Source: Escherichia coli 042 (GTDB taxonomy: Bacteria > Pseudomonadota > Gammaproteobacteria > Enterobacterales > Enterobacteriaceae). From it: 64,000 nucleotides of DNA. Location of the stretch: the NCBI RefSeq assembly GCF_000027125.1, contig NC_017626.1; one strand, 5' to 3'. Shown one piece after another: positions 1,040 through 50,498 of the stretch; position 1 is the first letter of the stretch; each line of letters opens with the position of its first letter. Both the position numbers and the translations under genes were made by a program. The notes under the pieces were generated by a model. It was not told the origin of the DNA, did not search any database, and was given only the letters and a program-made list of their open reading frames with translations.

Positions 1040-2077
1040 ATGTTTTCCGCATTGCGCCACCGTACCGCTGCCCTGGCGCTCGGCGTATGCTTTATTCTCC
1101 CCGTACACGCCTCGTCATCTAAACCTGGCGATTTTGCTAATACTCAGGCACGACATATTGCTACTTTCTTTCCGGGACGCATGACCGGAACTCCAGCAGA
1201 AATGTTATCTGCCGATTATATTCGCCAACAGTTTCAGCAAATGGGTTATCGCAGTGATATTCGGACATTTAATAGTCGGTATATTTATACCGCCCGCGAT
1301 AATCGCAAGAGCTGGCATAACGTGACGGGAAGTACGGTGATTGCCGCTCATGAAGGCAAAGCGCCGCAGCAGATCATCATTATGGCGCATCTGGATACTT
1401 ACGCCCCGCTGAGCGATGCTGACGCCGATGCCAATCTCGGCGGGCTGACGTTACAAGGAATGGATGATAACGCCGCAGGTTTAGGTGTCATGCTGGAATT
1501 GGCAGAACGCCTGAAAAATACGCCTACCGAGTATGGTATTCGATTTGTGGCGACCAGTGGTGAAGAGGAAGGGAAATTAGGTGCTGAGAATTTACTCAAG
1601 CGGATGAGTGACACCGAAAAGAAAAATACGCTGCTGGTGATTAATCTCGATAACTTAATTGTTGGCGATAAATTGTATTTCAACAGCGGCGTAAAAACCC
1701 CTGAAGCAGTAAGGAAATTAACGCGCGACAGGGCGCTGGCAATTGCGCGTAGTCATGGAATTGCCGCAACGACCAATCCGGGTTTGAATAAAAATTATCC
1801 GAAGGGTACTGGCTGTTGTAATGACGCCGAAGTTTTCGACAAAGCCGGTATTGCCGTACTTTCGGTAGAAGCAACAAATTGGAATCTTGGGAATAAGGAT
1901 GGTTATCAGCAACGCGCAAAAACAGCTGCATTCCCTGCGGGAAATAGCTGGCATGACGTAAGACTGGATAATCAACAACATATTGATAAGGCACTTCCAG
2001 GAAGAATAGAACGTCGCTGCCGTGATGTTATGCGGATAATGCTACCGCTGGTGAAGGAGCTGGCGAAGGCGTCTTGA
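1040..2077 (+). CDS. iap: alkaline phosphatase isozyme conversion aminopeptidase
   Basis: 345-aa ORF with signal-peptide-like N-terminus (MFSALRHRTAALALGVCFILPVHASS) and M28-type aminopeptidase motifs (HLDT, SGEEEG); position between cysD and the CRISPR array. Confidence 0.85.
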   Translation: MFSALRHRTAALALGVCFILPVHASSSKPGDFANTQARHIATFFPGRMTGTPAEMLSADYIRQQFQQMGYRSDIRTFNSRYIYTARDNRKSWHNVTGSTVIAAHEGKAPQQIIIMAHLDTYAPLSDADADANLGGLTLQGMDDNAAGLGVMLELAERLKNTPTEYGIRFVATSGEEEGKLGAENLLKRMSDTEKKNTLLVINLDNLIVGDKLYFNSGVKTPEAVRKLTRDRALAIARSHGIAATTNPGLNKNYPKGTGCCNDAEVFDKAGIAVLSVEATNWNLGNKDGYQQRAKTAAFPAGNSWHDVRLDNQQHIDKALPGRIERRCRDVMRIMLPLVKELAKAS

Positions 2078-2097: not shown

Positions 2098-2553
2098 GGG
2101 AGTTCTACCGCAGGGGCGGGGAACTCCAAGTGATGTCCATCATCGCATCCAGTGCGTCCGGTTTATCCCCGCTGACGCGGGGAACACACATGAATGTCGG
2201 TTCAGACCGTGTTTTTACCCGGTTTATCCCCGCTGGCGCGGGGAACACTCGTCGGCGTCTTCACCCGTCGCATAACGCTGCGGTTTATCCCCGCTGGCGC
2301 GGGGAACACTGCCAGCGTGTCGGCGTGCGTTTCGCGCTGCCCGGTTTATCCCCGCTGACGCGGGGAACACTCGATCGATAGCTGCGCGATACCTGCGGGG
2401 ATCGGTTTATCCCCGCTGACGCGGGGAACACGGCAGCTATCGAGGCAGTTATCGAGCGTCGCGCGGTTTATCCCCGCTGACGCGGGGAACACCAAAGGAC
2501 ACCGGGAGGCACCCGGCACCGCAGCGGTTTATCCCCGCTGACGCGGGGAACAC
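2098..2553 (-). CRISPR. CRISPR array (CRISPR2.1-type, cas-adjacent): 7 canonical 29-bp repeats plus one degenerate leader-distal repeat, 7 spacers of 32 bp
   Basis: Repeat CGGTTTATCCCCGCTG(A/G)CGCGGGGAACAC at about 2159, 2220, 2281, 2342, 2403, 2464, 2525 with exact 61-bp period; degenerate copy at about 2098-2126. Transcription inferred on the minus strand from the leader at 2554-2649. Confidence 0.95.
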
Positions 2554-2649
2554 ACTAAGCATACATAACTGTTTTTAAAAAAATTTATTCCGCATCAACA
2601 ATCTACCAACTAAATTAAAACATTTCCTTATTTTTAAAGAACAGATAAC
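2554..2649 (-). promoter_or_regulatory. CRISPR leader (AT-rich) between array and cas2
   Basis: AT-rich about 95 bp abutting the last perfect repeat; shares the motif CAATCTACCAAC with the second leader at about 28409-28500. Confidence 0.7.
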
Positions 2650-3859
<1,210 letters not shown>

Positions 3860-3863
<4 letters not shown>

Positions 3864-4510
3864 GCCTCTGCTCCGGGTTTGATCAGCATCAGACCACAGC
3901 CGAACGCGCGGCTTTTGCCATACCCCTGGCTCAGACGTTGCAGAAATAACCCAGGATCGGTGACCGTAAGCATCCCCGTATAATCCACGCTACAGAACTG
4001 GATCAGTTGCCGGGAGTTTTCCCGCCGCAGTTGCTGTTGTCGGTAGGCATCGACCGAGGTATCCAGTAGTGTAAAACCGCTTCTTTCCCCCTGCGCTGCC
4101 AGCCAGTCCAGCGCCGCCTGTTGTTGATGCAACCAGACATCACGCCCTTCCGCCTGCCCCCTCACCTGCCGTTTCGCCTCTATCAGCAGATCGTGGCGCT
4201 TACCCGCTTTACAGACTGTTGGATTCGCCCGCAGGTTGAAACAAAGGGATTGTCCGGTACGCAGCTCCGGCGCAAATGACCGGCATTCGATGGTGAACGT
4301 ATCACTTTCCGCCGGGCGTTCCTGCGACAGGACAAAAAAGCGAAACGCGCCCTGGAGTTCTTCCCGACGATAAAGAAATTGCCTTTCTTTGCCACCCGGG
4401 AAAAGATCCCACAGCCACTGATGCATCACATATTCACCGCGATCCACCAGATGCAGCAACTGCGCAGGCGAAAGCTGGCCGGTATGTAAGGTTATTCTTG
4501 AGAGGTACAT
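3860..4510 (-). CDS. casE: Cas6e / CasE (Cse3) crRNA endoribonuclease
   Basis: Track ORF 3860..4648; I place the start at the internal Met (MYLSRITLH..., about 4510), which is preceded by AGGAGG. C-terminal glycine-rich segment GCGLMLIK typical of Cas6e. Confidence 0.85.
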
Positions 4511-5238
4511 GGTTCCTCCTTGCTGAGCCACGGCCCCTGATTGACGGTGCGTTCCCCAAACAGCCACTGCTGGCGATTTAAAGGAACATCCCGGCGGCGC
4601 AATATTTTGCTCGCGACCAGGCCGTCGTGCTCCCCTTCCCACCAGCATTCATCCTGAAGTTTCGGGAGTGAGACTTTCAGTTCGTGGAAACGATCCTGAT
4701 ACTGTTGGTATGCGTTACGTAAGACATCAGACGCGTTGCCTTCGAGCAGTAACGGCGCAAGTGGTAACGCCAGCGGATGACTTTTTCGCCCCAGATAAAG
4801 CGGAAAAACCGGATGACGTAAATCTTCCTGCAACTGTTCGAGGCTGTAAGGCGCATCGGGGGTTGTTGCCACCGCCACCATCCACCAGGCGTCGGTGTAA
4901 TAGTCGCGCCGGGAGATAATCGCGCTTAGCAGTTCAAGATTACTCAACTCTTCGCGACGGCTGAAATAACGCGCTTTACGCACCTCTTTTGGCATCTGGA
5001 CCGTGTGATAATCCCGTGCCCAGCGCGGGTTACGGCTGGCGCAAACCACCAGTGAATAGTGGCGATTAAACGCGTTTAAGCGTTCGGTATCATCACGCCG
5101 AATCCCTACCCCGGCAGCCAGCAGCCCCAGCAATGCTGAGCGCGAAGGCAGTTCATGGGTATGACGCACTTCACCGGGGGCATCGACGCCCCAGGATGCC
5201 ATCGGCCCATGAAGCTGAAAAATTAGATATTGGCTCAT
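4492..5238 (-). CDS. casD: Cas5e / CasD
   Basis: 248 aa, MSQYLIFQLHGPMASWGVD...RSALLGLLAAGVGIRRDD matches the Cas5e N-terminal motif; operon position. Confidence 0.9.
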   Translation of the reverse strand: MSQYLIFQLHGPMASWGVDAPGEVRHTHELPSRSALLGLLAAGVGIRRDDTERLNAFNRHYSLVVCASRNPRWARDYHTVQMPKEVRKARYFSRREELSNLELLSAIISRRDYYTDAWWMVAVATTPDAPYSLEQLQEDLRHPVFPLYLGRKSHPLALPLAPLLLEGNASDVLRNAYQQYQDRFHELKVSLPKLQDECWWEGEHDGLVASKILRRRDVPLNRQQWLFGERTVNQGPWLSKEEPCTSQE

Positions 5239-5248
5239 AAGCCGCCCC

Positions 5249-6304
5249 TTACGCGCAGATAAAGTCCAGCACGTCCTTCATGCTTCCCTGTTTGTTCATC
5301 ACGTCAAAACTTGTGTAATCGGTCTTCTGTTCGTAAACCTTATTCATGTTTTCGCGAAGCGTCGTAATACGCTGCACCGCTTCATCTAACTGCCCGGTGC
5401 CGTTAATGGGTTCATAAAAAGCCGCCGCCAGAGAGCGCGGTTGTTCGATACCTTTTTCTGCCATCGCCCAGGAGGCGTAGGCACGACTGGCAAAGCTGTT
5501 TTGTTTACCGGTTGGGGAAACTTTAAACGCGGCTTCCGTAAAGGCGCGCAGGGTCTGATTAGCCAACGCTTCGTCTCCGCCGAGGTTTTCTACCAACAGA
5601 TCTTTATCAATGCAGATATAGGTGTAGAAAAGTGCTGAACCGAATCCGGTTTCACCAAGATGCCCGGCACCGGCATCTTCAGAAGCCTGGCGCAAATCAT
5701 CAACGGCGGTGAAAAAATCATCTTCGACAATCGTTTCACTGACACCAAACGCATGCGCAACCTGGCAGGCGGCTTCAACATTAAACTCGGGTTTATTCGC
5801 CAGCATACGACCAAACATAGCGATATCTACCGCCATGCGATCTTTACGTAACAAAGCGAGATCTTCCTCTTTTGGCGCGCGCTTTTCTTCGGCCAGTTGA
5901 TGGGCCAGCGCTTTTACGGCGTCAAATTCTGCCGGGCTGATATGGACTAGCTGTTCAGTTTCGGCGTTAGTGAGCGGATCTTTTGGTTTTTTGTCGTTTT
6001 TAGCTTTCCCAAGATAATCCGCAATTTTTGCCGCCCATTCGATGGCTTTTTTCTCTTCGATGCCTTTCTCAATCAGGATAGTTGCCGCCTCACGCGCAAT
6101 ACGCCCACTGCGAATACCAATATGGCCCGCCAGTGCCTGTTCAAAATGTGCAGAAGTGCGCCACGCACGTTTCAGACTTTGTGAGGAAACGCGCAGACGC
6201 GTTGCTCCACCCAGTACCACAGTTTTTGGCGCACCGGTGTCATCACGGTTAAGGTTGGCAGCAGGGTAAGCGGTTAACAAATGAAGCTGAATAAATGTCG
6301 TCAT
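5249..6304 (-). CDS. casC: Cas7e / CasC (Cascade backbone)
   Basis: 351 aa, MTTFIQLHLLTAYPAANLNRDDTG...SSQSLKRAWR is the Cas7e signature; operon position. Confidence 0.92.
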   Translation of the reverse strand: MTTFIQLHLLTAYPAANLNRDDTGAPKTVVLGGATRLRVSSQSLKRAWRTSAHFEQALAGHIGIRSGRIAREAATILIEKGIEEKKAIEWAAKIADYLGKAKNDKKPKDPLTNAETEQLVHISPAEFDAVKALAHQLAEEKRAPKEEDLALLRKDRMAVDIAMFGRMLANKPEFNVEAACQVAHAFGVSETIVEDDFFTAVDDLRQASEDAGAGHLGETGFGSALFYTYICIDKDLLVENLGGDEALANQTLRAFTEAAFKVSPTGKQNSFASRAYASWAMAEKGIEQPRSLAAAFYEPINGTGQLDEAVQRITTLRENMNKVYEQKTDYTSFDVMNKQGSMKDVLDFICA

Positions 6305-6318
6305 GAGATAGTCCTTTA

Positions 6319-6855
6319 TTAATTTTGTTCGTTATCGGCGTCGCCAGCCTGGTAATATTCCAGCGCCCAGCGGATACGGATAAATTCTGTTGGCCGCTGC
6401 TGGCGGCGGTGATGATTGAGCAGATCGTCGCTCTCCTGGCACCAGCGGAAAATATCGTCTGCCAAAGAGATAAGATTGACGGAACCATTTAATAATTTGA
6501 CCGCGCGACGTAACTGGCGCAGTAATTCATCCGGCGTTTTGACTGCCGACAGGCGAGTAAAACGCCCCTCAGACATTACCGCCGCCAACTGCGCGGCAAA
6601 AAGCTGCCGTTCATCAATGGCTTTTACATTGGCGGCAACGGCGGCAACCAGCGCCAGTGCGGTAAAACGCCACTCCTGTGATTCAATTTTCCACAACGTG
6701 TGGGTCTGCATCAGCAGAGAACGAAACCCTTCTGACAGACAAACATCATTAACCGTTGTGCTACGCCGCAGACTGGCACGATTGCCTCGTTTTTCCTGCA
6801 ACTCTTCGTGCCATTTACGCAGCGTGGCTTTGTGCTCCTCTTTTACAATACTCAT
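6319..6855 (-). CDS. casB: Cse2 / CasB (Cascade small subunit)
   Basis: 178-aa ORF between casA and casC with ATGA-type overlap to casA; assignment mainly by operon position and size, sequence divergent from my memory of K-12 CasB. Confidence 0.75.
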   Translation of the reverse strand: MSIVKEEHKATLRKWHEELQEKRGNRASLRRSTTVNDVCLSEGFRSLLMQTHTLWKIESQEWRFTALALVAAVAANVKAIDERQLFAAQLAAVMSEGRFTRLSAVKTPDELLRQLRRAVKLLNGSVNLISLADDIFRWCQESDDLLNHHRRQQRPTEFIRIRWALEYYQAGDADNEQN

Positions 6856-8414
6856 TCAGCAGCCTCCTGCTTTTTCTCCCTGGCGGCTTTAGCACTTTGC
6901 TTCTCCGCCGATGTTGTAAAATATTTCTTGCGCGCGGTCATGACGCGTTTCAAATCAACGGGCTCATAAGGATTAGTGAATACACGCTCGTCAAAATCCT
7001 GACGCGCGAATAACCAAATTTCCTTTTGCCATTTGCCGAGTAATTCATCCGCATCCTGACCTTCTTCAATTTGGCGCACTAACCTCAGGAAGCGATGCTG
7101 AGTTTTGTTCCAGAAGTCGATATCCACAAAACTAAAATCACCCCGAGCACCTTTTGGATCGGAGAACCAGGCTTCTTTCAATGCACTCCGTAACAGACTT
7201 AGAATCCGTGAAGCCGTTTGCGCAACCAGCCGCAGCTTCGGTATCTGGCCTTCTTTTTTATTGAGCAGCAGCGGGAAATGGTGTTCGTACCAACAACGGG
7301 CTTTCATGTTGTCAAAATCATAACCAAATCCCCACAGGCCCACTTTTGTCTGCTTCAGACTGCTGGCATTAAAGAGTTTCACCACCAGCGCGGGAAGTTC
7401 CGTATTGTTTTCTGACTTACCCGTTTCGATAAGACCTAACCAGTCGCGCCAGATTAAACCGCCCGGTTGTGGTTTAACGGAGTAAAACTCACCGCCCTCT
7501 TTAAGTGGTACACGGTAAGGCGTTAAGGGATGCTGCCACATGGCATAATTCGCACCATAATTTTTGGTCGTCATCAGGCTCAGGAGCGAGTCATTCTGCT
7601 CGCCGCAAATATCGCAGTTGCCGACTGTCGTGGTATTAAAATCAATACGAATACGCCGCGGCATTCCCCAGTACGCCTGGAGTTTATTGACCTGATCATG
7701 GGTTACCACCGCACCGGCCAGTTCGCTGGTACGCGTCGGGCCAAGCCAGGGGAAAATCAGATCGTCAAATTTTTTGGGTAGCGGTAAGTCGGCTTCATCC
7801 TGCGGCATCACATTGAGCCACAGTTTGCGCCACAAGGGTGTTTGTTGATTGCCCTGATATTCCTGTAATTCAATCAGAGTGGTCATCGGCCCACCGCCGC
7901 GTAAACCGGTGCGATAGCCTTTGCCGCCTGACGGCGCATTTAACTGTAGGGAGAACAGAGCTAACGCAGAACAATGTGGGCACAGGTATTCCGTTACACC
8001 ACGCTTGATAAAGTGGTCTTTATTAAACTTCGTTGTTTGAGCGCCGGGAATCTCAGGCAGTAGCGAAGCGACCGGAATTTTATCTCCGGTGAGCGCCTCG
8101 AAATCCTGCATAAATGAAGGGGAATCTGGGCCAAACTGGAAAGCATGTTCTAAAGATAGCAATGCTTCCCGTAGCTTTTCAGCTTCCAGTCCGTCTTCCC
8201 AGATATCATCCCAACGACGATGATCTTTTGGCGCGAAGCTGGTTTGTAGTAGCCCCAGCAAAAACTGCCACGCCGCTCCCTGGAGATCTGCCCGCGGCGC
8301 AGCGATATCGACAACATTTTCATCCGCCAGATCGACTGGCGCCAGTTTGCCTGTTGTTCCGTCTTTAAAACGAACGGGCAACCACGGGGTTGTCAGAAGT
8401 GAAAACGAGTTCAT
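6852..8414 (-). CDS. casA: Cse1 / CasA (Cascade large subunit)
   Basis: Track ORF 6852..8483; I favour the start at MNSFSLLTTPWLPVRF (about 8414) with GAGAGG 6 nt upstream; the 8420 and 8483 starts remain possible. Size about 520 aa fits the Cse1 family. Confidence 0.8.
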   Translation of the reverse strand: MNSFSLLTTPWLPVRFKDGTTGKLAPVDLADENVVDIAAPRADLQGAAWQFLLGLLQTSFAPKDHRRWDDIWEDGLEAEKLREALLSLEHAFQFGPDSPSFMQDFEALTGDKIPVASLLPEIPGAQTTKFNKDHFIKRGVTEYLCPHCSALALFSLQLNAPSGGKGYRTGLRGGGPMTTLIELQEYQGNQQTPLWRKLWLNVMPQDEADLPLPKKFDDLIFPWLGPTRTSELAGAVVTHDQVNKLQAYWGMPRRIRIDFNTTTVGNCDICGEQNDSLLSLMTTKNYGANYAMWQHPLTPYRVPLKEGGEFYSVKPQPGGLIWRDWLGLIETGKSENNTELPALVVKLFNASSLKQTKVGLWGFGYDFDNMKARCWYEHHFPLLLNKKEGQIPKLRLVAQTASRILSLLRSALKEAWFSDPKGARGDFSFVDIDFWNKTQHRFLRLVRQIEEGQDADELLGKWQKEIWLFARQDFDERVFTNPYEPVDLKRVMTARKKYFTTSAEKQSAKAAREKKQEAAE

Positions 8415-8511
8415 ACGCATCCTCTCGTAAAAAAGACCATCCCAGGTCGGTTGTCCATCATTCCATCCTTTTGGGTGTATCAACTATTCAGAGAGCCCTG
8501 TCGCAGGCATC

Positions 8512-11169
8512 TCAACCAACCTTGCCAGTCAATCCTTCCATAGCCGAATACCCGCAACTTTCGTCATCGGTGACTAAAATCACGTTTGCCATCTCCGGAT
8601 CTTGCCGCTGTTCAATGCACCACTGCCTGAACGCATCCCCTTCCAGTAAAGAAAACTCATCCCGATGTTTTTTCCACCAGCTTCGACGCACTCTGACAAC
8701 GCTCATTTCCCATGCGTGAGCACCGGTGGCATAAGGCTTCACCACACCGTCAATACAGGTAGCCAGCCACAGGGAAACAGATTCCTCAGCCAGACGTGTC
8801 GACAGCTTTTCCGGAAGGTAATCGTTGATATTGGCGGCATAGCCAGGCTTGAAGTTCAGGACAAACTTTTTAGCCATTGCGCGATCGCAGTAATATTTGC
8901 CCACTTGCTCCTGCTCACTGCGGGCAAATCCTTCCGGCATTGCCACGTCTTCACCGTAGACTGATTCAATAAGAAGCCGGGCTGCGTGTGGCATCTGAAT
9001 AGCGCCTTGCTCACGCAGCACACGCTGCGTCAGCCAGATTCGCCCATGATCGGGGTAGACATATGCACTGTTACGCATGGCGCTGCCAAACCATTCGTCA
9101 CCCGGAGAGTCATCCCAGACGGGAGCCAGAATCAGCAATTCAGGAGGGGAACGCTCATCTTTTCCGTCACGCTTTAACTGACCATTAATATCGCGGATAT
9201 GCCGCTGTAATCGCCCCGCCCGCTGGATTAGCAAATCAATGTGGGCCAGGTCGGAGATCATTTCGTCCAGGTCACAATCGACGCTCTGCTCTAATACCTG
9301 AGTACAAATAAGGACTTTTCCGGCACGCTGTGAGTTACCTTCTTTACCAAAGCGTGCCAGCGTTTCCGTTTCAATTCGCTGGCGATCGCTAAAAGCAAAG
9401 CGGCTATGAAAAAGTGAAAGGCTGGAAGCGGGAATGACGCCGCGGGCAAGCAGCTGACGATGAACCTTAATAGCGTCATCGACAGAATTCCGGATCCAGG
9501 CGATGCATTTCCCCTGACTTACCGCCGATTCGATATGTGCAATACATTCTTGTTCGCTATGAAGCCAACCCACACACACGTTGCGCTCAACTTCTTTGCG
9601 CGTCGCTACCCGGTGCGAATGCAAATCGGATTTCGTGACATGCGTCAGCCATGGGTAATCATCCTTTTCAAGGAACGGAGCTTCTTGTTGGCCCTCTGCA
9701 CCACGCGCAAAGGCAGCGACGAGTTTGTCGCGCTGCTGTTGAGATAACGTAGCAGAAAGCAAAATGATACTGTTTCCGCCACGCGCCTGCCGCTCAATCA
9801 ATCCTTCAAGAATGCACGACATGTAAGCGTCACAGGCATGGATCTCATCAGCCAGCAGGATTTTTTTACTCAACCCCAGAAGCCGCAGATTATTATGTTT
9901 GAACGGCATCACCGCCATCATCGCCTGATCCAAGGTGCCGACGCCAATTTCAGCCAGCAACGCCTTCTTGTTACTGTCGGCAAACCAGGCCGCACATCCC
10001 TGGCTGAACGCTTGTTCATCCGGTTCTTCTGACCCGACTAAATCACCGGACCAGAGTGATTCATTGAAGCGGTCCATTAATGTATGGGCACTGTGTGCCA
10101 GCACCAGGCTGGGGCGGGATTCTGGCGAATAGAAAGCAAGCCAGGTTTTGACCAGCCGATCGTACATGGCATTGGCCGTTGCCATTGTTGGCAGGCCAAA
10201 AAACAAACCCTGAGCTTTCCCCGCAGCCATCAACCTGTGGACCATGATAAGCGCTGCTTCTGTTTTACCTGCGCCAGTCACATCCTCCAGAATAAATAAC
10301 TGTGGCCCAGGCTGGCTGATATCCAGATCCAGTACCTTTTGCTGTAACGGTGTCGGGTGCTCAATAAAAGGAAACAGTGTATTAATTCCGGTGAAAGGCG
10401 CGGTTTGTGCTTTTGGAGGAAAGACGGTTAAGGCGTTTTGAGCCTGAACTAAAGCCTTCTGCCAGTAATCTTTAATATCCATTGCCTGTGCAACGCGTGG
10501 AAAAAACCGCGTTGACGATCCCGTCCAGTCTGCGAGTACGACGGTTGCAGAGATATACCAGGAAAGTTGTTTTATAAGTTCAACGCCCTCGTCATCATCC
10601 CAGAATGTGGGGATCTCGATGAGCGGGAACAGTGTCTTGATTGCAAGGAGAAAATCTCGTGCGGCAGCTTTGTCTTCAGGCAGAAAATTATCCAGTTCAT
10701 CCATACGATCAGGAGGCTGACCATGATGCCCGGTAGTCATGGGCATCCACATCTCTATTACCCGTTTAAGTTTGCGGGGAGAGAGTGAAGATGAAGGAAG
10801 CAACTCTTCACATTCAATTAAATAATGATTCCACAACCAGTAGCCCAGCGTTGAATGAGAGATCTTTTCGTAATTTTTTCTTGCACTTTCCGGAACCTTG
10901 AGCTGTGGGTGCAGGTAAAGTTGCTGAAAAGAGCGGGCAAATTTTCCAGTATCGTGCCAACACAGCAACCAGGCGAAAAATTGTGCTGCCTGCTCCGTGT
11001 CAGCGATACCTAATTGACGAAAATAGTCAGCCAACCCGAAACAGTTGTTTTTGACCATTAAATAACCCGTCGCGGCTACATCCAGCGAATGCCAGCAAAG
11101 TAGATGATAGTCGTCGCCGCCCTCTTTCTCGCCACGTCGGGTTTTTCCCCAGAAATCAAAGAAAGTCAC
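8512..11169 (-). CDS. cas3: Cas3 helicase-nuclease (HD domain + DEAD/DEAH helicase), type I-E
   Basis: 885 aa; N-terminal HD motif (HSLDVA...H), helicase motif I (GAGKTEA), DExH-like LADEIH, motif VI QRAGRLQR. Confidence 0.93.
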   Translation of the reverse strand: MTFFDFWGKTRRGEKEGGDDYHLLCWHSLDVAATGYLMVKNNCFGLADYFRQLGIADTEQAAQFFAWLLCWHDTGKFARSFQQLYLHPQLKVPESARKNYEKISHSTLGYWLWNHYLIECEELLPSSSLSPRKLKRVIEMWMPMTTGHHGQPPDRMDELDNFLPEDKAAARDFLLAIKTLFPLIEIPTFWDDDEGVELIKQLSWYISATVVLADWTGSSTRFFPRVAQAMDIKDYWQKALVQAQNALTVFPPKAQTAPFTGINTLFPFIEHPTPLQQKVLDLDISQPGPQLFILEDVTGAGKTEAALIMVHRLMAAGKAQGLFFGLPTMATANAMYDRLVKTWLAFYSPESRPSLVLAHSAHTLMDRFNESLWSGDLVGSEEPDEQAFSQGCAAWFADSNKKALLAEIGVGTLDQAMMAVMPFKHNNLRLLGLSKKILLADEIHACDAYMSCILEGLIERQARGGNSIILLSATLSQQQRDKLVAAFARGAEGQQEAPFLEKDDYPWLTHVTKSDLHSHRVATRKEVERNVCVGWLHSEQECIAHIESAVSQGKCIAWIRNSVDDAIKVHRQLLARGVIPASSLSLFHSRFAFSDRQRIETETLARFGKEGNSQRAGKVLICTQVLEQSVDCDLDEMISDLAHIDLLIQRAGRLQRHIRDINGQLKRDGKDERSPPELLILAPVWDDSPGDEWFGSAMRNSAYVYPDHGRIWLTQRVLREQGAIQMPHAARLLIESVYGEDVAMPEGFARSEQEQVGKYYCDRAMAKKFVLNFKPGYAANINDYLPEKLSTRLAEESVSLWLATCIDGVVKPYATGAHAWEMSVVRVRRSWWKKHRDEFSLLEGDAFRQWCIEQRQDPEMANVILVTDDESCGYSAMEGLTGKVG

Positions 11170-11406: not shown

Positions 11407-11559
11407 CTACTTCTTCGATTCGTAAGCGAGAACTGCCTTAAACTCCATACCACGTTCTCTGATACTCAACTCACACAACGAGTCGCCTACCATCAGCGTG
11501 AATCCCAGTACTGTACAACACAGTACGATGATTGCCACAAGGGCATATTTTGTCAGCAT
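11407..11559 (-). CDS. Hok/Gef-family type I toxin, 50 aa (HokE-like), unannotated small ORF
   Basis: Hand translation of the minus strand gives [50 protein letters not shown]; single TM helix, conserved Cys and C-terminal AYE motif, GGGAGG SD upstream, GC hairpin just 3' of the stop. Below the track size cut-off. Confidence 0.8.
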
Positions 11560-11823
11560 GTCTTGCCTCCCTGCAAAGAAGAGACTAACATTCGAATTGC
11601 TTAGGTTCGAACGCTGGCCTCAGGTTGATTGAAATATCGCCTGGGGCTTTTGTCCATCTGGAACCTCGCGAATGCTTAACGCCAGACAGCCTCAAGCACC
11701 CAACGCCATTCTATACCTGTTAATTTTCCCTGCGATGTTCACCTTTAAATGCCGGAATGCTGCTCGCAAAATAAAAACGCCCCCATCATTTCTGACAGAG
11801 GCGTTTAATTTATCCGGCAATAT

Positions 11824-27620: not shown

Positions 27621-27667
27621 GTGAGGAAGACCGGGCGGGAAACTGCCCGGCCTGAACATACCTGAAT

Positions 27668-27804
27668 GGTTATCCCCGCTGACGCGGGGAACATAAGTTC
27701 GACAACTTAAAAAATGATAACAAGTCCGGTTTATCCCCGCTGATGCAGGGAACATAATAAAAACTTTAACTAGTTCGGTTTATCCCTGTTTTTACAAGGA
27801 ATAT
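27668..27804 (-). CRISPR. degenerate CRISPR remnant (CRISPR2.2-like): about 3 decayed repeats
   Basis: Decayed repeat copies at about 27668 (GGTTATCCCCGCTGACGCGGGGAACAT), 27727 (CGGTTTATCCCCGCTGATGCAGGGAACAT) and 27776 (CGGTTTATCCCTGTTTTTACAAGGAATAT); spacing 59 then 49 bp. Confidence 0.7.
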
Positions 27805-28257
27805 TAACTACACTCGATGTCTTTAGAATAAAAGACAATACGAATCGCACTTTATCAATTTTCACTTAAAGTATGAACTGGATATCTTTATTCATAAGAA
27901 CTATTCATCAACAGCGTATAGAGGCGATTATGTAAAATCACTCATTAGCCTCAAAACAAAGACAAATTTCCAGATTTATTACTTAATCAATGAATAATAA
28001 GCTTAAAAAATACACTGTTATTCTAAAGAAAAAATTAACAGGCATTAATTAATATTAAAAAAATAATATATTAAAATTTCTTAACGATTTAAGAATCATA
28101 CAAATAACACTTTGATTAAATTTAATTTTTTGTATCGATAATTGTGAACTTCTCTGGCATGGAGAACTATTTTGAACATGAGGTGTTACGTGGATATGTT
28201 GCTTATTACAAGTACTGCTAATATAAAAACTTGAGAAAGAGATAACGGGTTATATGG

Positions 28258-28408
28258 TGGTTTATCCCCGCTGGCGCGGGGAACTCTTGGCATAGGCGCT
28301 ATAGCGGCGCTCTGTGTCCGGTTTATCCCCGCTGACGTGGGGAACTCAAAGACAAATTTCTTTGTTCCTATGGCCAGACCGGTTTATCCCCGCTGGCGCG
28401 GGGAACTC
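28258..28408 (-). CRISPR. CRISPR array (CRISPR2.3-like): 3 repeats, 2 spacers
   Basis: Repeats at about 28258, 28319, 28380 with 61-bp period, consensus CGGTTTATCCCCGCTGGCGCGGGGAACTC; the middle repeat carries GACGTGGGG. Confidence 0.9.
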
Positions 28409-28500
28409 TCTAAACATAACCTATTATTAATTAATGATTTTTTAAGCCAGTCACAATCTACCAACTTTACAGTATCACACAAACAACACATCCATTATGT
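28409..28500 (-). promoter_or_regulatory. CRISPR leader for the 28258-28408 array
   Basis: AT-rich, abuts the terminal repeat, shares AAACATAAC and CAATCTACCAAC with the 2554-2649 leader. Confidence 0.65.
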
Positions 28501-28746
28501 TAAAGAGCATTTAATCCATTGATTAAAAAGATAAATATTTGAAATAACTCTATTCAAACTAAAATCTACCAAATTTCACCGCAATAATTTTCACTCCAAC
28601 GAAAAATTAACGCCATAAAATTTGTAGAGAATGATAATGATTAGTTCAGGATGGGCAAAATGGAGGTTTTTCAGAGGCGACAAAGAATATAAATGAGTAG
28701 AAGTCTTTACAGGTTCCACCCATTTATAACGCTTATAAATGTTTAA

Positions 28747-46690: not shown

Positions 46691-48043
46691 TTATTGCCCC
46701 GCGACAGGTTTCAGCTCGATACGCTTGATATCGCCCACCAGCACCAGGTAGCTCAGCACCGCGATTAAGGCATGAACACCAACATAAATCAGCGCCCCAT
46801 TAAACGAGCCAGTCGTGCCAACGATATAACCAATTGCGATTGGCGTGACGATGCCAGAAATGTTACCGAACATGTTGAACAGGCCACCGGAAAGACCGCT
46901 GATCTCTTTTGGCGCGGTATCTGCCATTACTGCCCAACCCAGCGCCCCGATGCCCTTACCGAAGAAGGCCAGCGCCATAAAACCGATGATCATCCACTCA
47001 ACGTTGACGTAGTTGCAGAACACCATCACCATCGACAGCAACATGCCCATTACGATCGGTGTTTTACGCGCAATGTTCAGCGATCCCGTGCGGCGCATCA
47101 GCCAGTCGGAAATAATCCCACCCAGCACACCGCCGATAAAACCGCAAACCGCCGGAACGGAAGCCACAAAGCCCGCTTTCAGAATCGACATCCCACGCGC
47201 CTGCACCAGATAAACCGGAAACCAGGTAATGAAAAAGTAAGTCAGGGCGTTGATACAGTACTGACCGATATAAACGCCGATCATCATCCGTGACCCGAGC
47301 AGCTGTTTGATCTGCCCCCACTTCACGCTGAACGGCACTTTAACTTTGGTATTTTGCTGATCCATATTGATCAGCGCGCCACCCGCGGCGATGTACTCCA
47401 GCTCTTTCTGATTTACACCCGGATGTTGATTTGGCTCGTGGATGACTTTCAACCAGATAAAGCTGATGACAATGCCCAGACCGCCCATAAAGAAGAAGAC
47501 GTGTGACCAGCCCACTTCATGCGTCAGCCAGCCCATAATCGGCGCGAAGATCACCGTTGCGAAGTATTGAGCGGAGTTAAAAATCGACACCGCCGTTCCC
47601 CTTTCCTGCGCCGGAAACCAAGCCGCAACAATGCGACTGTTGCCGGGGAAAGATGGCGCTTCAGCAAGCCCGACCAGGAAGCGCAGCGTAAACAGGGCAA
47701 CGATAATGCCGAATCCACTAAAGATATCGACGAAGCCTTGCAGCAAGGTAAACATCGACCAGATAAAGATCGACCAGAAGTAGACGCGTTTTGAACCAAA
47801 ACGATCCAGCAACCAACCACCAGGGATCTGCCCGATAACATAAGCCCATGAGAAGGCAGAGAACACATAGCCCATTCCCACGGGATCAAGGCCGATATCT
47901 TTGGCCATTTCCGAACCGGCAATAGAAAGCGTAGCGCGGTCGCCGTAGTTGAAGGATGTGACGATAAACAACATCACCACTATCCAGTAACGAGCATTCG
48001 TGCGTTTTTCCACACTGCTCGCAGCCTGACTTAAAGAACTCAT
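46691..48043 (-). CDS. gudP: glucarate/galactarate MFS transporter
   Basis: 450 aa polytopic MFS protein, first gene of gudPXD. Confidence 0.9.
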
Positions 48044-48421: not shown

Positions 48422-48442
48422 CCTGAAAAGATTCGATTCAGC

Positions 48443-48502
48443 ACCGCTAAAACGGCATTTACACCGCTAAAACGGCATTTACACCGCTAAAACGGCATTT
48501 AC
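48443..48502. repeat. perfect tandem repeat, 3 x 20 bp, plus partial fourth copy
   Basis: ACCGCTAAAACGGCATTTAC repeated three times head-to-tail, followed by CCGCT. Confidence 0.9.
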
Positions 48503-48517
48503 CGCTCGCTGAACGTA

Positions 48518-48967
48518 TCAGGACAACAGCGTGCCCCAATGTTCGACCCACGGATTTGATTCCGTTTCCGGTTCCGGGTTCTCACTGGCGTCAATCAACA
48601 GCATTTCTCCCACTCGCTGAGCGCTCTGTTCCTGCAACAAGGCATCGAACTGTTTGCCGCCATTGCAGAAATTCACATAACTACTGTCGCCGAGCGCAAT
48701 CACGCCATAACGCAGATTCGGCTGGAAGCCCAGGGTATCTTTGATTCCCTGAAAGAGCGGCACAATGCTATCAGGAAGGTCGCCCTGCCCGGTCGTGGAC
48801 GTAACCACCAGAACATACTTATCCTGATAGGGCAGCCAGTCGCTTAATTCAGGATCTTCAAATACCGTTGCTTTGTGGCCCTGTGCGGTCAGAATTGCTT
48901 CTGCTTCTTCCGCCACTAACAGCGAATTTCCGTACATGGTGCCGACAAAAATACCAATTTCCGCCAT
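48518..48967 (-). CDS. yqcA: flavodoxin-like protein
   Basis: 149 aa, [23 protein letters not shown]...; flavodoxin fold. Confidence 0.9.
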
Positions 48968-50096: not shown

Positions 50097-50141
50097 AAAG
50101 CAACCTCAATAAGAAAAACTGCCGCGAAGGATAGCAGGAAT

Positions 50142-50498
50142 AAAAAAAGGGAGCACTGTATTCACAGTGCTCCCGGTTCGTTTCGCAGCATTCCAGCTAC
50201 TTTTGTTGCTCCCTGCTCATCCTTGACAACTTTTCCTCTGGCCTTGCGGCCAATCGTTCATCCTGAACTATTGCTTCCTGCTCACACCACCCCGATGTGA
50301 TACTTCATCCTGAAGTGTCCCTGGCCTTCCTGGCCCACCGAATCATCCTGACCGGTTCTCATTCTCCATCCTGGAGGTGTCCTTTAACGCGTCCTGCGTC
50401 ATCCTCTTCGCTTCATCCAGAAGCCTTTCCCTGAAACACCATCCTGGTGTGTCCTTCAGAAGTGTCATCATCCTGATGTTCACTTCGTTGTCTGACTC
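50142..50498 (-). ncRNA. csrB: CsrB regulatory sRNA (CsrA-sequestering)
   Basis: About 357 nt with many CAGGATG / AGGA motifs (seen as CATCCTG on the + strand); 5' end GAGTCAGACAACGAAGTGAACATCAGGATG; 3' terminator GGGAGCACTG...CAGTGCTCCC plus U-tract. Track ORFs 50085..50300 and 50377..50565 lie inside it and are not coding. Confidence 0.95.

Follow-up and report, generated by a model that had tools for sequence, protein, structure and literature searches.

The iap-cas2 array of Escherichia coli 042 as a type I-E CRISPR-1 locus shortened, most parsimoniously, by spacer deletion

The CRISPR array located between iap and cas2 of E. coli was the first CRISPR to be described (Ishino 1987, cited in PMC10011333; also PMC4422515). 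For the K-12 system, transcription of the array, processing by Cas6e, interference by Cascade and Cas3, integration of new spacers by Cas1-Cas2 and IHF, and silencing by H-NS have been summarized, and the leader, the IHF site, and the PAM-derived G of the repeat have been described (PMC10011333). Two sequence variants of the E. coli type I-E system are known, with polymorphism in casB, cas3, cas7, cas5, and cas6; the repeats of this system share the core TTTATCCCCGCTGGCGCGGGGAAC, in whose 24 nt point mutations are known from some E. coli strains (PMC12736100). E. coli arrays are reported to be stable, with deletion as the main route of diversification, and to target P1, RCS47, and SJ46 more than any other known phages (PMC10910852). 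The type I-E system of E. coli is generally reported to be silenced by H-NS under laboratory conditions (silencing in PMC10910852).

We analyzed an array of this kind in a 64,000-nt stretch of the E. coli 042 genome, hereafter the window. The coordinates of the array and its neighbors are listed in Table 1, with the spacers named W1 to W7 from the iap side to the leader. The locus is almost certainly an ordinary type I-E CRISPR-1 locus of E. coli, also called CRISPR2.1 or CRISPR I, from which spacers have been lost by deletion.

Table 1. Features of the iap-cas2 region of E. coli 042 (positions in the window)
Feature	Position	Strand	Details
iap (alkaline phosphatase isozyme-conversion aminopeptidase)	1040..2077	+	NCBIfam NF007568, 705 bits
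Array	2098-2553		8 repeats of 29 nt, 7 spacers of 32 nt, register 61 bp
Repeat starts	2098, 2159, 2220, 2281, 2342, 2403, 2464, 2525		step exactly 61
Degenerate terminal (leader-distal) repeat	2098..2126	-	+ strand reads GGGAGTTCTACCGCAGGGGCGGGGAACTC
Spacer W1, oldest	2127..2158	-	
Repeat 2	2159..2187	-	loop A (TGAC)
Spacer W2	2188..2219	-	
Repeat 3	2220..2248	-	loop G (TGGC)
Spacer W3	2249..2280	-	
Repeat 4	2281..2309	-	loop G (TGGC)
Spacer W4	2310..2341	-	
Repeat 5	2342..2370	-	loop A
Spacer W5	2371..2402	-	
Repeat 6	2403..2431	-	loop A
Spacer W6	2432..2463	-	
Repeat 7	2464..2492	-	loop A
Spacer W7, leader-proximal	2493..2524	-	
Repeat 8, leader-proximal	2525..2553	-	loop A
AT-rich leader	2554..2649	-	96 bp, GC about 0.22
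cas2e	2650..2943	-	TIGR01873, 131.6 bits
cas1e	2940..3863	-	TIGR03638, 380.9 bits
cas6e (casE), repeat-hairpin endoribonuclease	3860..4510	-	TIGR01907, 283.7 bits
cas5e (casD)	4492..5238	-	TIGR01868
cas7e (casC)	5249..6304	-	TIGR01869
cse2 (casB)	6319..6855	-	TIGR02548
cse1 (casA)	6852..8483	-	TIGR02547, 613 bits
cas3	8512..11169	-	Cas3 HD and helicase core domains above cut-offs

The array lies between iap and cas2, and a complete type I-E cas operon follows beyond the leader, consistent with its earlier description as a cas-adjacent array. All eight cas ORFs (2650-11169) were full length and scored well above the NCBIfam cut-offs for type I-E families. The cse1 ORF was drawn from the earliest start codon, and its family match starts at residue 28. 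Cse1 and Cas3 failed the K-12-type equivalog models, Cas3 falling below the cut-off of NF007248, and passed the general type I-E and domain models. The RefSeq annotations of K-12 and of the relatives of strain 042 have the same order, cysD / iap / CRISPR / cas2e / cas1e / cas6e. When aligned with the K-12 CRISPR-1 leader, the cas-proximal, AT-rich stretch shares TTAG at the junction and, some 55-67 nt upstream of the repeat, a GTTGGTRGRTTGT block, and is thus a putative leader homologous to that of K-12. A sigma-70 promoter scan found no site in this leader; it found none in the experimentally active K-12 leader either, so the scan is uninformative. Just past cas3, at 11544-11701 (-), there was an Rfam match to the sok antitoxin RNA (109.6 bits), implying that a remnant of a hok/sok-type toxin-antitoxin system separates the cas operon from the genes that follow.

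The seven regular repeats read CGGTTTATCCCCGCTG(A/G)CGCGGGGAACAC, each with 0-1 mismatch to CGGTTTATCCCCGCTGACGCGGGGAACAC, and possess the length of about 29 nt, the core (as given in PMC12736100), and the palindromic stem of type I-E repeats. The inserts between them are unique, and 7/7 are 32 nt long, in keeping with the roughly 32-nt spacers and 61-bp period of such arrays. The coordinates and counts of the first-pass annotation, which had described seven 32-bp spacers in a 61-bp register, were all correct, and the letters it quoted for the leader-proximal spacer matched the sequence. The repeat pattern was matched 11 times in the window, seven times in the array and four times at a second locus, versus 0 matches expected from 100 shuffles of the window. 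Allowing up to 6 mismatches, none of the spacers recurred elsewhere in the 64-kb window. No CRISPR direct-repeat family of Rfam was matched, either in the whole window with the gathering threshold or in the array with E<=1, which may simply mirror the content of the library (Rfam 15); the only match in the array was a weak echo of STnc100, due to spacer W7.

Other features were observed elsewhere in the window. A second array without cas genes, at 28258-28560, has three repeats (28258, 28319, and 28380) and two spacers, with an AT-rich leader-like stretch on its right that is homologous to the CRISPR-1 leader, and looks like the CRISPR-2 (2.2/2.3) locus between ygcE and ygcF. Its repeats end in AACTC, the K-12 type, versus AACAC in the cas-adjacent array. 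Three decayed repeat remnants (around 27661, 27727, and 27777; region 27650-27810) lie about 500 bp upstream of it. Farther along, the intergenic space flanked by the minus-strand ORFs 46691-48043 and 48518-48967 contains a perfect three-copy tandem of the 20-mer CACCGCTAAAACGGCATTTA (48442-48502). A full-length CsrB sRNA gene (50139-50498, -; Rfam RF00018, 383.9 bits) is located about 1.6 kb away from this tandem.

To place the spacers, we carried out the searches against phages and plasmids and the PAM inspection that the first-pass annotation had proposed. Two spacers, W2 and W7, matched P1/P7-like phage-plasmids. W2 was identical over 32/32 nt to a site in the upf94.2 gene of P7-like phage-plasmids, namely P7, SJ46, pKBN10P04869B, and pO111_2, and its perfect protospacers were flanked by CTG, not AAG or ATG, in 4/4 elements examined. 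The homologous site in P1 has ATG and four mismatches, one of them at seed position 4. The target of W7 is the upl-tciA intergenic region of P1-like phage-plasmids, with 32/32 identity and AAG in RCS47 and an IncY plasmid; in reference P1, the site carries AGG and differs from W7 at three positions, including seed position 1. P1/P7-like plasmids bearing a perfect W2 or W7 protospacer were common in E. coli (303 plasmid places). W3 matched, with 32/32 identity and the PAM ATG, the replication endonuclease gene of a P2-like prophage of E. coli 40EC, which also holds terminase, portal, and ogr genes. Among the spacers with mobile-element targets, an AWG PAM was thus found for W7 (AAG) and W3 (ATG), W2 (CTG) being the exception. 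With P1/P7-like phage-plasmids and a P2-like prophage as its targets, the array adds to the evidence that temperate elements are what E. coli spacers mainly recognize.

The W7 protospacer overlaps the 3' end of a sub-threshold Rfam match to STnc100 near the tRNA genes of P1-like phages (positions 1411-1532 of the RCS47 extract and 1411-1531 of the P1 extract). The central 21 nt of W7, CACCGGGAGGCACCCGGCACC, were found exactly in several hundred genomes of Stx-converting, Klebsiella, and other temperate phages; this search matched 486 phage records, one of which annotates the site as STnc100. Through these 21 nt, conserved exactly within an STnc100-family sRNA gene in about 480 temperate phage genomes, W7 might conceivably, though this is unlikely, prime adaptation against a wide range of phages. 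A terminator-like hairpin within W7 on the minus strand has a poor U-tract and was set aside as a structure that came with the captured phage sequence.

W1 is the species-wide anchor spacer, with two mismatches (30/32 identical) to the oldest K-12 spacer. No phage or true plasmid target was found for it, the matches in the plasmid collection being CRISPR arrays in chromosome-sized records; one further exact match (H162) was located in a 293-kb plasmid record. For W4-W6, INPHARED phages, PLSDB plasmids, E. coli genomes outside arrays, and IMG/VR yielded no convincing target. Exact-pattern scans with every sixth base left free did not find W4, W5, or W6 in IMG/VR, W6 in JGI metagenomes, or W5 in GTDB genomes. 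Partial matches of W1 and W3-W6 to phages and plasmids, e.g., 25/29 to a Peduovirus terminase and 27/30 to a Duffyella plasmid, were sub-significant and were rejected. An 11-mer, TCGATAGCTGC, occurs in both W5 and W6, on opposite strands, a match equaled in 3/20,000 shuffles, and W6 contains a tandem 12-mer, TCGATAACTGCC TCGATAGCTGCC. These features suggest that a single element with an iteron-like repeated region, absent from the databases searched, may be the source of both spacers.

The set of spacers was then compared with those in complete E. coli genomes, and the arrays of six relatives, O17_K12a, A10, CH4796, THO-008, GN25, and CB6837, were parsed. At least four of W1-W7 were present in about 30 complete E. 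coli genomes, always within the iap-cas2 array, and W3-W6 were present in only 36 of the 5,426 complete genomes. The flanks, leader, and cas1/cas2 of the six relatives were identical or nearly so to those of E. coli 042; 1471/1471 and 1147/1147 flanking positions were identical in O17_K12a, A10, THO-008, and CB6837 (three relatives were compared byte for byte). Read from iap to the leader, with the additional spacers designated x1 to x12, the array of A10 (19 spacers) is W1 W2 W3 W4 x1 W5 x6 x7 x2 x3 x4 x5 x8 x9 x10 x11 W6 W7 x12, and that of CH4796 (17 spacers) has the same order minus x6 and x7. The arrays of O17_K12a (12 spacers), THO-008 (11 spacers), GN25 (10 spacers), and CB6837 (4 spacers) are W1-W4 x1 W5 x2-x5 W6 W7; W1-W4 x4 x5 x9 x10 x11 W6 W7; W1-W4 x1 x7 x3 x4 x5 W7; and W1-W4, respectively. 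The relatives' arrays, of 4 to 19 spacers, are therefore ordered subsets of one series, and the comparison of spacer order with other strains, which had also been proposed, gave the same order in all six relatives.

The E. coli 042 array differs from that of O17_K12a in being without x1 and x2-x5, and from that of A10 in being additionally without x6-x12. At the level of sequence, two deletions, one of x1 and one of x2-x5, turn the O17_K12a array into the E. coli 042 array. The W4|W5 and W5|W6 junctions, and an identical seven-spacer array, were absent from the 5,426 complete genomes. Most parsimoniously, the E. coli 042 array arose by repeated loss of repeat-spacer units from an ancestor that had at least 19 spacers. 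The first-pass annotation had called the array small, and with seven spacers it is; its smallness would, however, reflect the erosion of that longer ancestor and not the acquisition of few spacers. The same annotation had regarded W7 as the most recent acquisition. W7 is the youngest of the seven retained spacers, but it is old and shared: nearly all of the approximately 30 related complete genomes whose arrays extend beyond the first four or five spacers have it, the isolates with it come from several continents and hosts, and x12 lies between W7 and the leader in A10 and CH4796. Among the compared arrays, x12 is the sole candidate for a gain, a possible one, and the other differences are explicable by loss. 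What is new here is only this spacer-loss allele, since the array lineage is already present and annotated in public genomes. The set W1-W7 with its unique W4|W5 and W5|W6 junctions constitutes a strain-level typing marker in a lineage that loses spacers.

Explanations other than an ordinary CRISPR-1 locus, and the opposite polarity, were weighed against these results. A tandem repeat arising by chance or belonging to a non-CRISPR class, such as a REP-like element or a minisatellite, was ruled out: identical 29-mers alternate with unrelated 32-nt inserts at an exact 61-bp period for which shuffles predict no matches, a complete cas operon adjoins the array, RefSeq calls the orthologous region CRISPR, and three spacers match mobile elements exactly. 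The order of spacer recency given in the first-pass annotation depended on the leader not being on the iap side. If the leader were there, the array would be read on the plus strand and W1 would be its newest spacer; the iap-side copy is indeed unlike the other repeats, a formal point only, and we regard this arrangement as extremely improbable. The sequence to the right of the array is homologous to the characterized K-12 leader, and the gap from the iap stop codon to the terminal repeat is only 20 bp. The PAMs suit the minus-strand reading alone, because the W7 and W3 protospacers are preceded by AAG and ATG in that orientation, with a final G equivalent to the last repeat base. K-12 has the degenerate repeat and W1 too, which makes them the oldest part of the array, and all differences among the relatives lie between an invariant W1-W4 block and the leader, further in and at the cas-side end. 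On this sequence evidence, the leader is on the cas2 side and the minus strand is the predicted crRNA sense, so the recency order is retained.

With this polarity, and by analogy with K-12, transcription would start in the leader (2554-2649) and run leftwards on the minus strand through the array, and Cas6e would cut every repeat at the foot of the 7-bp hairpin, on its 3' side. Each crRNA would be 61 nt long, with an 8-nt AUAAACCG handle in front of the 32-nt spacer and the hairpin behind it. Cascade carrying this crRNA would find matching DNA beside AAG or ATG, after which Cas3 would degrade the target DNA. Cas1-Cas2, together with IHF, would insert new spacers at the leader-repeat junction with duplication of the leader-proximal repeat, and repeat 8 (2525..2553) would serve as the template for duplication at the next acquisition. 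Since Cas6e is 27% identical to its K-12 counterpart and the other Cascade subunits have probably diverged too, the PAM set and the processing, both derived from K-12, may differ in detail in this system. It is possible, though in our judgment somewhat improbable, that the array is instead a frozen relic, intact in sequence, that neither acquires spacers nor interferes in nature, changes only by deletion between repeats, and persists as a neutral passenger useful for typing. Loss can explain all differences among the seven related arrays, with x12 as the one possible gain, and the same spacers recur in isolates from Denmark, Sweden, Germany, Japan, China, and Mexico, from both humans and birds, in line with the reported stability of E. 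coli arrays and silencing of the system (PMC10910852); moreover, E. coli commonly harbors P1/P7-like plasmids that W2 or W7 match exactly. On the other hand, all eight cas ORFs have their full length and match their families strongly, the leader is conserved, and the canonical AAG and ATG PAMs at two targets indicate acquisition by the normal machinery, while silencing in the laboratory is no proof of inactivity in the wild. It is unlikely that the CTG and AGG PAMs and the W7 seed mismatch in present-day P7 and P1 are marks of escape from natural type I-E activity. If they do reflect escape and not drift, the supposedly silent type I-E system of E. coli has exerted selection on P1/P7 phage-plasmids.

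The leader-distal repeat had been described as heavily decayed, and this was borne out: the terminal copy, still in register, is identical to the consensus at 18/29 positions, for which the chance probability is ~3e-5 at one fixed position. It retains the 3' GCGGGGAAC and has lost the left arm of the stem. The orthologous terminal repeat of K-12 (3141-3170 of the K-12 extract) differs from it by one substitution and one extra G. When folded alone with ViennaRNA, the terminal copy adopted a structure other than that of the canonical repeat, GAGUUC...GAACUC, with -12.6 kcal/mol and z = -5.0. Because the decayed repeat cannot form the canonical hairpin in this model, the W1 transcript probably lacks a normal 3' end, and a W1 crRNA would probably be without the canonical 3' hairpin and the Cas6e site. 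The role of such old spacers is regarded as uncertain for the same reason (PMC4422515). The hairpin of the terminal copy, GGAGTTC-N14-GAACTCC, is conserved between the E. coli 042 window and K-12.

The repeats vary at one position of the loop, with TGAC in five copies and TGGC in two (Table 1), exactly as the first-pass annotation had noted. On the crRNA strand, the repeat reads GUGUUCCCCGCG(U/C)CAGCGGGGAUAAACCG, and ViennaRNA predicted a stem of 7 bp, running from U5-A22 to C11-G16 and capped with the tetraloop G(U/C)CA. The varying base falls inside this predicted tetraloop, at its position 2, and the minimum free energy was -15.2 kcal/mol in both variants; the change therefore leaves the predicted stem and energy unaltered and is neutral in the folding model. 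The polymorphism is real but not peculiar to the E. coli 042 genome, since the order from the oldest to the youngest repeat, A G G A A A A, was the same in every relative parsed, and A10 has A in all 16 repeats on the leader side of W4. Judged from these sequences, the loop pattern is an inherited, position-fixed record. The oldest regular repeat of K-12 also has A at the loop position (TGAT) and also ends in AACAC. In the simplest history, the A of the oldest regular repeat would be ancient and predate the split from K-12, repeats 3 and 4 keep what is, by sequence comparison, the G of the species consensus, and a single G-to-A change in the then leader-proximal repeat, after the acquisition of W4, would have been copied into all later repeats because each acquisition duplicates the leader-proximal repeat. 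Deamination at a Dcm site was rejected as the cause by inspection, the context being GCCAGC and not CCWGG. The position-fixed polymorphism offers a clean example of a mutation of the leader-proximal repeat propagating to later repeats.

Compared with known systems, the E. coli 042 locus resembles K-12 CRISPR-1 in its position between iap and cas2, the core of its 29-nt repeat, the 61-bp period, the homologous leader, and the degenerate terminal repeat. It is unlike the K-12 array in that its repeats end in AACAC versus AACTC, most of its loops carry A versus G, and it has seven spacers versus twelve, of which W1 alone is shared. Iap is 99% identical to that of K-12 and Cas1 is 85% identical, whereas Cas6e has only 27% identity to K-12 CasE. 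The hairpin of the repeat is nearly unchanged from K-12 although Cas6e (3860-4510) is so divergent. As in the second variant described in PMC12736100, Cas1 and Cas2 are conserved and Cas6e is strongly diverged from K-12. This pattern of divergence, taken alone, suggests that the Cascade genes belong to a non-K-12 variant, like 'var. B-8552' as opposed to 'var. K-12', and that the Cascade module may have been replaced by that of a distant variant while the adaptation module and the type of array were kept. The locus is thus already known, and nothing in it departs from the known biology of E. coli type I-E arrays.
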